Assembly (NCBI GenBank): GCA_001820725.1
Contig: MHQR01000037.1
Coordinates: 1-44,547, forward strand
Length of the DNA: 44,547 nucleotides
Reading direction: 5' to 3'
DNA from: Candidatus Sungbacteria bacterium RIFCSPLOWO2_01_FULL_54_21
GTDB taxonomy: Bacteria > Patescibacteriota > Minisyncoccia > Sungbacterales > HO2-52-23
Part shown: positions 22,992 through 44,097 of the stretch, one piece after another
Layout: every line of letters starts with the position of its first letter
How positions within the stretch are numbered: the first letter of the stretch is position 1
Notes under the pieces: model-generated
Database searches by the model: none
What the model saw: only the letters and a program-made list of their open reading frames with translations
What the model was told of the DNA's origin: nothing
Made by a program: the position numbers and the translations under genes

Positions 22992-23033
22992 GCAACAAAA
23001 ACGTCTCGGTTCAAACCGAGACGTTTTTGTTGC
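22992..23033. terminator. intrinsic terminator, 20-bp perfect inverted repeat
   Basis: gcaacaaaaacgtctcggtt-ca-aaccgagacgtttttgttgc. Confidence 0.85.
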
Positions 23034-40744: not shown

Positions 40745-40780
40745 TATGAAAAAGATATGCTATAGCATATCTTTTTCATA
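40745..40780. terminator. perfect 36-bp palindrome between convergent genes
   Basis: TATGAAAAAGATATGCTA|TAGCATATCTTTTTCATA. Confidence 0.7.
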
Positions 40781-40789
40781 CCTCGCCTA

Positions 40790-41899
40790 TTATTGTCCGT
40801 CGCTTCGCTCTTCTGCCGTAAGCATGAGGGTCTCTTCCTTGCCCTCGCGCAGGATTTTGATCGGCACTTTTTCTCCGATGGCTACTTTTTCCAGTACGTC
40901 CTCAATCGCGTTTTTCTCGTCAATCGCTACATTATTGAGCGAGACGATGATGTCTCCTTCGCGCAGGCCCGCGCGTTCTGCCGCGGAGCCGGGCATGATT
41001 GCCGGACGGTCGGGGACATTCTGCCCAGGGACTCCCTGTCCGGGCAGGCCTTCGCGGAGTATGAATGCGCCACGATCCACGGGCAGGCGGAAGCGTTTTT
41101 GGATGAGGTGATTGATAAGCAGGTACCGGATGCCGAGGAACGGACGCCGGATGTGTCCGTATTTTTTCAGGTCGTCCAGATCGCACCGCGCTTTGTTAAT
41201 GGGAATGGCAAAGCCGATGTTCTGCGCGCCAAAAACAATGGCCGAGTTGATGCCGATGACTTCGCCCGCGAGATTGACCAAGGGGCCGCCAGAATTGCCC
41301 GGATTGATCGCCGCATCGGTTTGAATCAGGCCGCGAAGCCGCTCGGAATGTCCCTCCATGTCGGTCATGGCGGTGATGAAGCGCGATAATCCGGACACGA
41401 TGCCGGATGATACGGTATTTTGGAATTCCCCCAGCGCCGTGCCCACCGCGAGCACAAACTGGCCAAGCTGAATGGTATCGGAGTCGCCCAAGGGAAGCGC
41501 GGGCAAATCCTGGGCTTCTATTTTGAGGATCGCAACGTCATTCATGGGGTCGCGCGCAAGCACGGTCGCCGGATACCGGTCTTCGGTGGGTGTGACGACC
41601 ATATACTCTGCCGTTGGGTCGTGCACGACGTGTTTGTTGGTGAGGATGAATCCTTCAGGGTTGATGATAAATCCCGACCCGCCGCCGATGCGAATCTTGC
41701 CGTCGGGCGTGTGAGGCAATTCATCTTCGGGCGGCGGCAAGTCCACGTGGTCGCCGTGCGGCGCCATGAGCGCATAGGGTTTTTCCCTTACGATCGCGTC
41801 ATAGTCCTTGCTCACCACGATTGAGACCACGGCGGGCATCACCCTTTTCACCGTGTTGATAATCTGCTCCTCGTATGTTGTCGCTTGCATATCTTCCAT
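40790..41899 (-). CDS. HtrA/DegP-family serine protease with one PDZ domain
   Basis: 'LTNKHVV', 'DVAILKI', 'INPGNSGGPL', C-terminal PDZ. Confidence 0.92.
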   Translation of the reverse strand: MEDMQATTYEEQIINTVKRVMPAVVSIVVSKDYDAIVREKPYALMAPHGDHVDLPPPEDELPHTPDGKIRIGGGSGFIINPEGFILTNKHVVHDPTAEYMVVTPTEDRYPATVLARDPMNDVAILKIEAQDLPALPLGDSDTIQLGQFVLAVGTALGEFQNTVSSGIVSGLSRFITAMTDMEGHSERLRGLIQTDAAINPGNSGGPLVNLAGEVIGINSAIVFGAQNIGFAIPINKARCDLDDLKKYGHIRRPFLGIRYLLINHLIQKRFRLPVDRGAFILREGLPGQGVPGQNVPDRPAIMPGSAAERAGLREGDIIVSLNNVAIDEKNAIEDVLEKVAIGEKVPIKILREGKEETLMLTAEERSDGQ

Positions 41900-41927
41900 G
41901 ATAGCATAATGAGCGGGAAATCCATAA

Positions 41928-42000
41928 GCCCTCGTAGTTCAACGGATTAGAATCGCCCCGTCCTAAGGGGTTGATGGAGGTTCGATTCCTCCCGAGGGCA
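41928..42000 (+). tRNA. tRNA-Arg(CCU)
   Basis: GCCCTCG/CGAGGGC, GCCCC-GTCCTAA-GGGGT. Confidence 0.92.
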
Positions 42001-42010
42001 TGCGAGATTA

Positions 42011-42081
42011 GGGCCTATAGCTTAGTGGTAAAGCACGCGAATGGCATTCGCGGTATCGGGGTTCGATTCCCCGTAGGTCCA
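42011..42081 (+). tRNA. tRNA-Ala(GGC)
   Basis: G3:U70 pair, CGCGA-ATGGCAT-TCGCG. Confidence 0.93.
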
Positions 42082-42546
42082 CTGTATGATACTTCGAGCC
42101 GTGAGATTGCTGATTGAGCTCGAAGATTACTGACAATTTCGCGGTTCCAAAACCTTTATCCCCACACCTATGCATAGGTGTGGGGGTTTATTTCTCGTGT
42201 ACGGAATTCCGTCGGGGAATAATAATCTTTGGAACCGCGGGCGCGTTTCGGGCCGCAGGTCAAACCATTGCCGGCCGAGATCGCGTAAAAAGGCAGTGGC
42301 GTAGGCCAAGGCGGCTTCGATATCAAACTGGTCAATCTTGCATTCGGCCATTGATATCTTTACGGCCGCCACCTGGTTGTCCATTTCCTGCTTTCGTTCA
42401 AGAAATTCTTCTTTTGTATAAGACCCGTCCTCTCGCATTTCGCAAATGCGTTTTTTCTTTCCCTCAAGCTCGGCAAGCCGAACTTCATATTGTTTCGCCT
42501 CTATTTCAAATTTTGCTTTATTTTCCATTTTCATATTCATGCTCAT
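42082..42546 (-). pseudogene. C-terminal remnant of a large serine recombinase, frameshifted by a 32-bp insertion
   Basis: Coiled coil and 'FQRLLFPDGIPY'; removing the insertion restores 'GFGTAKLS' reading into tRNA-Ala; no catalytic domain. Confidence 0.65.
42159..42186. mobile_element. 28-bp palindromic insertion with TTTA duplication
   Basis: ttta-TCCCCACACCTATGCATAGGTGTGGGGG-ttta. Confidence 0.75.
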
Positions 42547-42606
42547 TTTTCGGCTATTTTCGGATATAATCCGATATAGCCGTTATATTCGATTATGGCC
42601 TGTTGA

Positions 42607-42675
42607 CCCCGTTAGAGAACGCCCTCGCAAGGCGAGTGGCTTCAGCCACCTTGGGGCGGCTTTTCTCTAACGGGG
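42607..42675. mobile_element. 69-bp MITE-like structured element
   Basis: 13-bp TIR CCCCGTTAGAGAA/TTCTCTAACGGGG, internal hairpins, flanks TTGA/CTGA. Confidence 0.65.
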
Positions 42676-42696
42676 CTGACTCTTTAAATACTATCG

Positions 42697-42725
42697 TATA
42701 CAATTGTATATAGTTAACTATATAC
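42697..42725. promoter_or_regulatory. overlapping palindromes (putative operator) over a TACAAT -10 box
   Basis: TATACAATTGTATA (42697-42710) and GTATATAGTTAACTATATAC (42706-42725). Confidence 0.5.
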
Positions 42726-42731
42726 GGTCAA

Positions 42732-43021
42732 CCCCCACACCTAATTTGCTTATGTTTTACACCTACCTAATCAAAAGTAAAAAGGATGGTGAGCTGTATA
42801 TTGGCTCTACCGATAATTTACGAAGGAGATTTCAGGAACACAACAAAGGGCTGAATCGCTCTACAAAATACAGAATTCCGTTTGAGCTTGTCTATTATGA
42901 GGCATATAAATCAGAAAAAGACGCAAGAGATAGAGAGCATAACTTAAAGTTGAGAACGAATGCATTGAATCAATTAAAGCGAATAATCACTAAAAGCCTC
43001 AAAGCAAATTAGGTGTGGGGG
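42732..43021. mobile_element. 290-bp element with 20-bp perfect TIRs carrying a GIY-YIG gene, TCAA duplication
   Basis: tcaa-CCCCCACACCTAATTTGCTT...AAGCAAATTAGGTGTGGGGG-tcaa. Confidence 0.78.
42752..43012 (+). CDS. standalone GIY-YIG nuclease (86 aa)
   Basis: 'YTYLIKS...LYIGST.NLRRRFQEHN...ARDRE'. Confidence 0.9.
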   Translation: MFYTYLIKSKKDGELYIGSTDNLRRRFQEHNKGLNRSTKYRIPFELVYYEAYKSEKDARDREHNLKLRTNALNQLKRIITKSLKAN

Positions 43022-43038
43022 TCAAGTACCATCAAATT

Positions 43039-44097
43039 ATGGCAGAAAATCGTTTCAACAAAAGAATAAAGTTCACGACGGAGATTTTAAGCAAGATTGC
43101 TAAGATTGACGAGTTTAAGGGTCTCTGGCAAGGAAGCCTGCGGCTAAGCCCGCAGATTTTGGGGCGCCTGAAGGCCTCGGTCATTATCACAAGCACGGGC
43201 GCGTCCACCCGTATTGAGGGCGCAAGAATGAGCGATGAAGAAGTCGCGCGTCTTTTGCGTGGGCTGAAATCAAAACCGCCAAAAGGAAGAGATGAGGAAG
43301 AAAATGCCGGCTACGCTGACCTCTTGGGTAGAATTTTTGACAACTGGAAAACGCTTAAACTTTCAGAAAACCAGATTTATCAGCTCCACAGCATTTTGCT
43401 GAATTTCGTAGAAAAAGACCAGAATCACAAAGGCAAATACAAAGCGACCGACAACGCGGTAACGATAAAAAACGAAAAAGGCGAAACGGTGGTTTTGTTT
43501 AGGCCAACCGCTTCATATCTTGTAAAGCCGGAAATGGAACAGATTTTGGCTTGGACAAACGAGGAGCTGGAGAAAAAAGAACCCCACCCATTGCTTGTCA
43601 TCGCAAACTTTATCTTTGAGTTTTTGGCTATTCACCCATTCCAAGATGGCAATGGACGGCTTTCTCGCGCGCTCACAAACCTTCTTCTTTTGAAAACCAG
43701 CTATTCATATGTGCCGTATGTTTCTATGGAAGAAATCATTGAGGAGCGAAGAACGGATTACTATCTTGCCCTTCGGGCAACTCAAAAAACTCACAAAACC
43801 GACTACGAAGATATTGCGGCATGGGTGAGTTTCTTTTTGGATGTTTTGATTGAACAGGCAAATCGGGCAAAGAAAATTATGGAAGCTGATCAGCCGGAGA
43901 AACTGCTTTCCGAAAAACAACTGGAAATTTATAAGTTGTTCGATACCAAAGACACTCTTGGTGTTTCGGAAATAGATAAAACTCTTGAGGGAAGAATACC
44001 CCAAGTAACCATAAAACAAGCACTCTCGCGCTTGGTCGTATTAAGATTGCTCGAAAGAATCGGTTTAGGACGCGGCACGCGATACAAGAAATTATAA
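43039..44097 (+). CDS. Fic-family protein with C-terminal wHTH
   Basis: 'HPFQDGNGRLSR' Fic motif; inhibitory 'STRIEG'; 'GLGRGTRY'. Confidence 0.92.
   Translation: MAENRFNKRIKFTTEILSKIAKIDEFKGLWQGSLRLSPQILGRLKASVIITSTGASTRIEGARMSDEEVARLLRGLKSKPPKGRDEEENAGYADLLGRIFDNWKTLKLSENQIYQLHSILLNFVEKDQNHKGKYKATDNAVTIKNEKGETVVLFRPTASYLVKPEMEQILAWTNEELEKKEPHPLLVIANFIFEFLAIHPFQDGNGRLSRALTNLLLLKTSYSYVPYVSMEEIIEERRTDYYLALRATQKTHKTDYEDIAAWVSFFLDVLIEQANRAKKIMEADQPEKLLSEKQLEIYKLFDTKDTLGVSEIDKTLEGRIPQVTIKQALSRLVVLRLLERIGLGRGTRYKKL

Follow-up and report, generated by a model that had tools for sequence, protein, structure and literature searches.

The analysed window comprises positions 1 to 44,547 of contig MHQR01000037.1 from “Candidatus Sungbacteria” bacterium RIFCSPLOWO2_01_FULL_54_21 (GCA_001820725.1; hereafter G000), a 767-kb genome of the candidate phyla radiation (CPR). 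Near the end of the window, a small gene for a GIY-YIG nuclease is enclosed between the two halves of a palindrome, and this unit is referred to below as the cassette. The inverted-repeat search placed its arms at 42731–42751 and 43002–43022; they are 21 nt long, 100% complementary, and separated by 250 nt. Counted from the C-run, the arms are 20 nt each, with CCCCCACACCTAATTTGCTT at 42732–42751 and AAGCAAATTAGGTGTGGGGG at 43002–43021 on the plus strand, which gives a unit of 290 bp. The open reading frame (ORF; 42752–43012, plus strand) encodes an 86-aa protein consisting of the GIY-YIG domain. Its ATG at 42752 abuts the left arm, and the TAG stop codon (43010–43012) falls within the right arm, which also holds the final three codons. 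TCAA stands on both sides of the unit, at 42728–42731 and 43022–43025. No Shine-Dalgarno sequence was found ahead of the cassette ATG. Among the perfect long-range inverted repeats of at least 12 nt in the genome, those with arms of at least 15 nt and a gap of about 250 nt enclosed solely its two GIY-YIG genes.

Two gene-less elements lie upstream of the cassette. The first is a solo palindrome of the same arm family (family A) at 42160–42186, which consists of a perfect 26-nt palindrome (42160–42185) and one additional G at its end. It has CCCCACACCTA and TAGGTGTGGGG in common with the cassette arms, the overlap being limited to the outer 11–12 nt, and is flanked by TTTAT at 42155–42159 and 42187–42191. 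The CCCCACACCTA 11-mer occurred four times in the window (0.18 expected; none of 100 shuffles reached four) and nowhere else in the 767-kb genome. The second element, at 42607–42675, is 69 nt long; its 13-nt arms, CCCCGTTAGAGAA and TTCTCTAACGGGG (42607–42619 and 42663–42675), enclose a structured loop of 43 nt (fold z about −6.3), and its flanks are TTGA and CTGA. These arms match those of the gene cassettes L075 and L080 (family D), and no family-D gene was found in this genome. The interpretation of this element, and of elements on contigs C26 and C25, as internally deleted cassettes was rejected, as only the arms were shared and the loops were unlike the ORF sequence.

Much of this layout had been described in an original prediction made from the sequence alone. 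Both the sequence and the repeat search agreed with its account of an 86-aa gene filling a 290-bp unit that is flanked by TCAA, its ATG directly behind the left arm and its TAG inside the right one. The empty palindrome that shares the cassette ends was also found, in the form given above, with TTTAT rather than the proposed TTTA as its flanks. The coordinates and flanks of the third element were correct, whereas its arms turned out to belong to a different family, whose gene is absent here. The original prediction was also right that the unit itself lacks a transposase; three Y1_Tnp genes and one rve gene are located in other parts of the genome, and a serine-recombinase remnant lies next to the cassette region.

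Recurrence of bracketed GIY-YIG genes in related genomes

The second and only other GIY-YIG gene of the genome, on contig C34, is 49% identical to the window gene and forms a cassette situated between two operon genes. The arms of this cassette are different, 20 nt long, and 249 nt apart; the ATG follows the left arm, and a TGA lies in the right arm. Homologues of the nuclease were present in 53 of 61 related genomes of 0.6–1.2 Mb, with a maximum of 13 matches in a genome of about 0.8 Mb. Among the matches listed, at least 13 contained in-frame stops.

The 125 loci collected from these genomes yielded 96 GIY-YIG ORFs, of which 85 were full-length and clear of the locus edges. An inverted repeat with a score of at least 12 bracketed 53 of the 85 full-length homologues, which came from 60 related genomes. 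By comparison, such a repeat was absent from all 384 pseudo-ORFs placed at shifted positions of these loci and was present at 2 of 1,000 randomly chosen positions in G000. For a second set, one peptide pattern was searched against species-representative genomes. This search gave 399 relatives, and the best 80 of the 399 were used; their titles came from many CPR/Patescibacteria lineages plus a few other labels. In this set, 54 of 78 non-edge loci were bracketed.

Gene-less derivatives sharing the arms were represented by solo palindromes of 22–30 bp and by short-loop forms of about 60–70 nt, resembling miniature inverted-repeat transposable elements (MITEs). Family-A solo sites numbered 54, distributed over 18 of the 61 genomes, while the reversed control pattern gave one site. 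Genome G060 alone carried nine family-A solos, most of them near-identical.

Empty sites and target-site duplications

Comparison with genomes G030 and G016 demonstrated that the solo palindrome of the window is a clean insertion of 32 bp: AACC-TTTAT-TTCT in these genomes corresponds to AACC-TTTAT-[27 bp]-TTTAT-TTCT in the window. The insertion lies in the 3′ end of a serine-recombinase gene. Metagenome contigs from X2 and X3 were likewise empty at this site, joining 42154 to 42187 with five shared letters. The solo palindrome matches the pattern of an intrinsic terminator and is located after two tRNA genes, yet it is an insertion absent from G030 and G016. As for the cassette, one X2 contig joined 42731 to the right flank; the cassette is absent from it, and a single TCAA remains. 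No orthologous empty site of the window cassette was found among 35 genomes of the family, in which the flanks were unconserved beyond the recombinase remnant.

Cassettes of related genomes were also absent from orthologous sites in genomes of the same genus. The L007 cassette of G031 is missing in G009, where the flanks are 87% and 78% identical; in G009, 7 nt take the place of the cassette and a further 9 nt of G031. Neither G003 nor G001 has the C34 cassette; their spacers of 60 and 129 bp hold other hairpins. The search with L097 against genomes of the same genus gave no match. At one further slot with conserved flanks in three species, the contents are a cassette in G001 (contig C14, L015), a solo palindrome of 30 bp with a different sequence in G003 (C28), and a 20-bp imperfect hairpin in G000 (C1:4537–4556). 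Such “hairpin slots,” which contain unrelated hairpins within identical boundaries and without a visible duplication, were also observed between contig C34 of G000 and contigs C11 of G003 and C78 of G001.

Direct repeats of at least 4 bp flanked 19 of the 53 bracketed cassettes, as against 4.8% of permuted left/right flank pairs; in the second set, they flanked 19 of 54. The duplications were mostly of the form TNNA (TAAA, TTGA, TTTA, TCAA), with, at gene starts, TGAA or TGAG in families D and F and TATG in family C. Repeats of 4–5 bp were also present at four of six independent family-A solos. Three cassettes with arms GCCCCTCACC... (L177, L198, and L203) had longer direct repeats of 7 bp, CCCGTAG, CCGTTAG, and CCAGTAG, followed by CTCA. 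These repeats resemble a tRNA 5′ end, which the insertion would have duplicated.

Arm families, pairing, and boundaries of the unit

The arms fell into families, including CCCCCACACC, to which the window cassette belongs, as well as CCCCCCACCAC, CCCGCCTAAA, TCCCGTTAGAGA, CCCTCCCAAC, and others. When the arm family was mapped on the protein tree, 11 changes were required (minimum 10), compared with 30–34 in the first 10 of 200 label shuffles. The outer arm is family-specific, C-rich on the left and G-rich on the right. Within a family, including family A of the window, the outer stem is conserved, while the inner stem varies from copy to copy yet remains paired. Among 44 family-A cassettes, 40 distinct inner arm sequences were counted. 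In the 102 non-identical cassettes, the median arm length was 20 nt, only 38 mismatches occurred in 1,920 positions, and the arms were perfect in 71 cases. The mismatches comprised 14 of the G.T type and 15 of the A.C type. Since there was no sense-strand wobble bias, the constraint acts on DNA pairing and not on the mRNA.

The arms also delimit the unit of similarity. In 67 of 313 cassette pairs aligned over at least 200 nt, the similarity stopped no more than 12 nt from the outer ends of the arms in each of the two members, and flanks were shared in 17 of the 313 pairs. Between the window cassette and L147 (69.6% identity), the boundary offsets were 0/0/0/0, and the match between the C34 cassette and G025 was likewise confined to the arm-bounded unit. 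Some cassettes had conserved outer flanks, AAAACCTTT...GCTNAANTTTTGT, which the interpretation proposed below does not explain.

Position of the cassettes relative to host genes

In 36 of the 53 bracketed cassettes, the next gene downstream has the same orientation as the nuclease gene, and its first start codon is located no more than 2 nt from the end of the right arm in 15 of these 36. The right junction falls within an ATG in 25 of 53 cassettes. The stop codon of the nuclease is the first triplet past the arm in 19 of 53, often in an ATGA overlap with the host start codon. In the C34 cassette and in G025, the next gene starts with an ATG composed of the final A of the element and the TG behind it. 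Many copies are thus inserted precisely at the start of a gene, which they restore. Insertion of this kind illustrates how a parasite can inhabit the operons of streamlined genomes without breaking them. A host ATG at the left junction was present in 22 of 53 cassettes; in 11 cases it was in frame, and in 9 the frame was open. The idea that the cassette is translated from this host start codon was dropped because the in-frame share was not clearly above one third.

The GIY-YIG protein

The 86-aa protein matched PF01541 over residues 1–73 with 65.5 bits (cut-off 22.6; E-value 5.3e-18) as one domain, and no second domain was found beside it. Residues Y5, Y16, G18, R26, H30, and E62, of which all but G18 are catalytic positions, were invariant across 34 sequences. 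The AlphaFold2 (AF2) model had a pLDDT of 92.9 and agreed with the beta-beta-alpha-beta-alpha fold of the superfamily. Its nearest folds were UPF0213 protein BH0048 and the SLX1 nuclease domains (TMq 0.57–0.69, root-mean-square deviation down to 1.4 Å), with I-TevI and UvrC further away. The sequence search of the PDB agreed with the fold search, and the best matches were 1zg2, 6sei, 7cq3, and 7wme. According to the titles of matched PDB entries, SLX1-type enzymes cut branched and stem-loop DNA.

In profile comparisons, the CPR proteins matched the GIY-YIG protein of Azospirillum that is flanked by SRM repeats (probability 98.6%, E-value 5e-16, 37% identity) and a UPF0213-type protein (E-value 2.5e-15, 40% identity) about equally well; the identity between these two proteins is 38%. 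The CPR proteins are thus as distant from the SRM-flanked protein as from UPF0213, which suggests that they form a third branch of a minimal SLX1-like group.

Comparison with known systems

The closest precedent is the Ssn family (cd10448), small GIY-YIG nucleases that cut single-stranded DNA (ssDNA) next to the hairpin repeat NTS/SRM, also when the two halves of the stem are on separate strands (Chenal et al., Nat Commun 2025; PMC11893778, in its passages on Ssn, as for all statements on Ssn below). In these passages, the ssn genes are described as flanked by NTS/SRM repeats, and the authors remark on the layout as insertion-sequence-like. The original prediction had treated a GIY-YIG gene as the sole cargo between terminal inverted repeats and target-site duplications as unknown, and this hairpin-gene-hairpin arrangement is a partial precedent for it. 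Both systems have a single-domain GIY-YIG protein (about 90–100 aa in Ssn, with a criterion of <150 aa; 86 aa here), a gene flanked by hairpin-forming repeats, many solo copies, and co-variation of nuclease and site (PMC11893778). However, each flank of an ssn gene is a self-folding hairpin, whereas the CPR flanks are halves of one palindrome, so that the gene sits in the loop. In addition, the CPR cassettes are present in many copies per genome, with target duplications and empty sites, while the term “target site” is absent from the passages of PMC11893778 on Ssn. The degenerate SRM motif had six matches in the genome, in comparison with 1–8 in five shuffles, and none stood beside either GIY-YIG gene; as a positive control, the same search found four and five copies around the plasmid-borne homologues of Azospirillum and Rhizobium. 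In Azospirillum lipoferum 4B, an Ssn-type gene on plasmid AZO_p3 (L228, 255506–255799) is located between sufB and sufC, with a canonical SRM hairpin pair on each side, and this operon-internal habit is the same as in the CPR cassettes.

The cassettes also resemble the REP/REPIN-RAYT and IS200/IS605 systems, which have dispersed palindromes and a small gene between inverted copies of its own repeat. By analogy, recognition of a hairpin rather than of a duplex end would be the likely logic in the cassettes as well. The enzymes are different, HUH tyrosine enzymes there and a GIY-YIG hydrolase here. The CPR GIY-YIG genes are also multi-copy, each with its own arms and with 4–5-bp duplications, whereas elements of the IS200/IS605 type make no target duplication. 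REP/RAYT-type loci were observed on contigs of G000 other than that of the window: three RAYT-like Y1_Tnp genes of about 216–234 aa (C30:3696–3959, C18:28609–28830, and C36:6830–7048; L144–L146) lie each among its own palindrome family (e.g., ATTCCAGACTAAGTCTGGAAT and CAGGGGTTGAACCCCTG).

Palindromic elements are known in other bacteria, such as the Correia elements and the Rickettsia palindromic elements. The gene-less derivatives share with MITEs a short non-coding sequence, inverted ends, small duplications, intergenic or gene-end positions, and amplification in bursts, as for the nine copies in G060. They differ in that the CPR solos are only 22–30 bp long and fully palindromic, and in that an autonomous counterpart with a 258-bp gene exists.

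The SLX1 and UPF0213 (YhbQ-type) proteins are the best matches in sequence and fold and are minimal domains as well. The CPR proteins consist of the minimal domain without the C-terminal Asn lineage features described in the relevant passages of PMC1564403. Unlike around the UPF0213-type gene of Radiobacillus, the gene for the tRNA1(Val) m6A37 methyltransferase and rsmI are absent from the neighbourhood of the window gene, which is mobile and repeat-bracketed, with two copies in the genome and up to 13 in relatives. Unlike for SLX1, no partner such as SLX4 is present. A homing endonuclease gene was also considered and rejected, given the lack of a second, DNA-binding domain, the lack of an intron family in 41800–43400, and the varied insertion sites.

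Proposed mechanism and alternative explanations

The cassette has the features by which insertion sequences are recognised, namely terminal inverted repeats, a discrete unit, target duplication, and empty sites. No transposase of a known class (DDE, HUH, or serine/tyrosine recombinase) was found within it, the GIY-YIG gene being its sole ORF. The mobility of cassettes and solos is well supported by these observations, and we consider it fairly probable that the 290-bp unit belongs, as an autonomous member, to a minimal hairpin-transposon family, in which the solo hairpins are non-autonomous. Such an autonomous plus non-autonomous system had been put forward in the original prediction; the observation is real, and the earlier interpretation is supported by the empty alleles with a single TTTAT (G030, G016, X2, and X3) or TCAA (one X2 contig), by the absence of relatives’ cassettes from orthologous sites, by the non-random flanks (19/53 and 19/54, mostly TNNA), and by the position of homologues between arms (53/85 versus 0/384). 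We infer that the nuclease itself is the mover.

The movement is probably carried out by the element’s own structure-specific nuclease. In the mechanism that we propose, the two arms would pair as a DNA hairpin or cruciform, and the nuclease would recognise the conserved distal stem, as the Ssn nucleases recognise their hairpins in ssDNA. It would then cut at the base of the stem and/or make a staggered cut at the target, and host repair or replication would finish the insertion. The solos would be mobilised in trans by the cognate nuclease. The CPR cassettes can be regarded as a variation on the Ssn/hairpin theme and may represent a new class of transposons. We put forward only tentatively, as a serious possibility rather than an expectation, that they are the first prokaryotic transposons whose sole protein is a GIY-YIG nuclease, an endonuclease of about 85 aa that recognises the hairpin or cruciform of its own ends and drives excision and insertion with a 4-bp duplication. 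In the literature search, no GIY-YIG gene inside a split palindrome and no GIY-YIG transposon with target duplications were found, with the proviso that the homologue lists in the supplement of PMC11893778 may include CPR members.

Several points weigh against this interpretation. To our knowledge, GIY-YIG enzymes hydrolyse DNA, and we know of no strand transfer by them. Among the homologues, 32 of 85, including whole clades, had no bracketing repeat, and no flanking repeat of at least 4 bp was present in 34 of 53 and 35 of 54 cassettes. The empty allele of the window cassette is represented by one X2 contig with a depth of 2, one single-nucleotide polymorphism, and a 1-nt indel, while three of the four cross-genome “empty” cassette sites are not clean, containing another hairpin or differing by 7–9 nt. 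The congruence of arm families with the protein tree is partly expected because related genomes share labels by descent; many members of the tree are nonetheless located in unrelated genomic contexts. Y1 matches were present in 46 of the 61 genomes and rve matches in 26 of 61. Finally, the one Ssn protein that has been studied acts on behalf of the host in ssDNA restriction and not as a transposase, according to the Ssn passages of PMC11893778.

The alternative that survives best is a host-serving system of the Ssn type, in which a domesticated ssDNA- or structure-specific endonuclease would, for example, control incoming or replicating DNA. The palindromes would then be recognition or regulatory sites, the gene would lie between half-sites for autoregulation, and the hairpins would have spread otherwise. 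The only relative that has been characterised, SsnA, modulates transformation and is encoded by a gene with its own sites on either side (PMC11893778, Ssn passages). The match of the CPR profile to the SRM-flanked protein, the different hairpins held by orthologous intergenic slots in each species, and the resemblance of the solos to terminators are also consistent with such a role. However, a host function accords poorly with up to 13 copies per 0.8-Mb genome and with in-frame stops in at least 13 of the matches listed. Each protein clade has its own arms, the arm-bounded unit recurs in unrelated contexts, and target duplications and empty sites exist. We regard this explanation as unlikely.

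Homing into hairpins appears less likely still. In this case, a free-standing GIY-YIG gene would cut existing palindromes at their apex or base and be copied in by break repair, so that the arms would be those of the target. Perfectly complementary arms would be expected from such a process, and it would fit the sharing of just the outer 11–12 nt between the solo palindrome and the cassette arms, as well as the slots with other hairpins where a relative has a cassette. Nevertheless, the arm family tracks the protein tree (11 changes versus 30–34), and the similarity between copies extends through the arms in full and goes no further than their outer ends. Moreover, the target duplications lie outside the arms, and the solos are insertions themselves. 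The X2 empty allele of the window cassette contains no palindrome.

It is quite improbable that the GIY-YIG gene is a passenger, with the arms recognised by a transposase encoded elsewhere, either Y1/RAYT-like or DDE. The three Y1_Tnp genes and the one rve gene of this genome provide candidates, and duplications of 4–5 bp are typical of DDE enzymes. The Y1_Tnp genes are flanked by other palindrome families, and the rve-type (DDE) gene is a single one with an open frame of 322 aa at the start of contig C21 (218–556; L227). Since the arm type follows the GIY-YIG tree and 10 of the 53 GIY-positive genomes had no match to rve or Y1, the two transposase families searched in the relatives, a transposase acting in trans, a DDE enzyme included, is unlikely. 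These ten include G036 and G037, both 100% complete, whose cassettes have duplications. Furthermore, DDE_Tnp_1 was not found in G000, and the IS200/IS605 type, which leaves no duplication, would not account for those observed.

Least plausible of all, and hardly to be expected, is an RNA-level feature with arms that pair in the transcript (for processing, stability, or translational coupling) or terminate it and are not mobile ends: the missing Shine-Dalgarno sequence, the stop codon in or beside the right arm, the close same-strand downstream genes (36/53 and 15/36), and the terminator score of the solo fit it, but the mismatches had no sense-strand G.U bias (14 versus 15), the Rfam scan of 41800–43400 gave no family match to the arms, and the duplications, empty sites, and dispersed solos require DNA mobility.

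If the hairpin-transposon interpretation is correct, a minimal structure-specific nuclease would be the basis of a further mechanism of DNA mobility, and thus a transposase class beyond those of the DDE, HUH, serine, tyrosine, and Cas1 types. At 290 bp, the cassettes would be among the smallest autonomous mobile elements known, with hairpins of 22–30 bp as non-autonomous partners. This would account for the presence of as many as a dozen very small GIY-YIG genes, along with numerous perfect palindromes, in CPR genomes of 0.6–1.2 Mb. The Ssn/NTS systems found in Neisseria, Wolbachia, and Rickettsia would be relatives that were domesticated or became more elaborate. An origin that can be tested is thereby proposed for the Ssn/hairpin systems, which shape genomes in Neisseria and in intracellular symbionts. 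The matched pairs of nuclease and stem, with 40 inner stems in one family, could also serve as a natural library of hairpin-specific cutters for ssDNA tools.

Other features of the region and the genome

Downstream of the cassette, a gene of the Fic/DOC family is located on the plus strand (43039–44097), with its ATG 17 nt past the right arm. A promoter-like site for the cassette at 42676–42704 was discarded, as the number of such sites did not exceed that in shuffles (4 versus 2.4 ± 1.5). In the Rfam scan of 41800–43400, two tRNAs passed, and no other RNA family or intron family was found. These are tRNA-Arg(cct) and tRNA-Ala(ggc) at 41928–42082 (plus strand), in agreement with the tRNA calls. 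The serine-recombinase remnant into which the solo palindrome was inserted is a 139-aa ORF on the minus strand (42130–42546), derived from a parent element at the 3′ end of tRNA-Ala. In G030 and G016, the recombinase gene is full-length (496–564 aa) and also lies beside tRNA-Ala.

The segment 42083–42550 as a whole is a degraded integrative element at tRNA-Ala, 80–86% identical across genera. Its 139-aa ORF consists of the first 9 codons of a 125-aa gene fused to the last approximately 130 codons of the large serine recombinase; G016 and G030 carry intact copies of the two genes. The summed depth of this segment in metagenome contigs was 100–1100, in comparison with about 15–25 for the flanks, which indicates that the integrative element is common to many organisms in those samples. 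One contig of run X3, aligned to positions 42745–43008 of the window, had the outer arms of the window cassette around a 40-nt palindromic loop that replaces the gene. This form is a mid-size non-autonomous one; the contig has only 21 nt on one side of the joint.

The genome as a whole contains 203 perfect hairpins (stem of at least 10, loop of at most 12), with several repeated palindrome families. Within the window, a 36-nt palindrome at 40745–40780 has relatives on contigs C34, C20, and C1, and another palindrome site is located at 22992–23033. This palindrome load is very high for a genome as small as G000.

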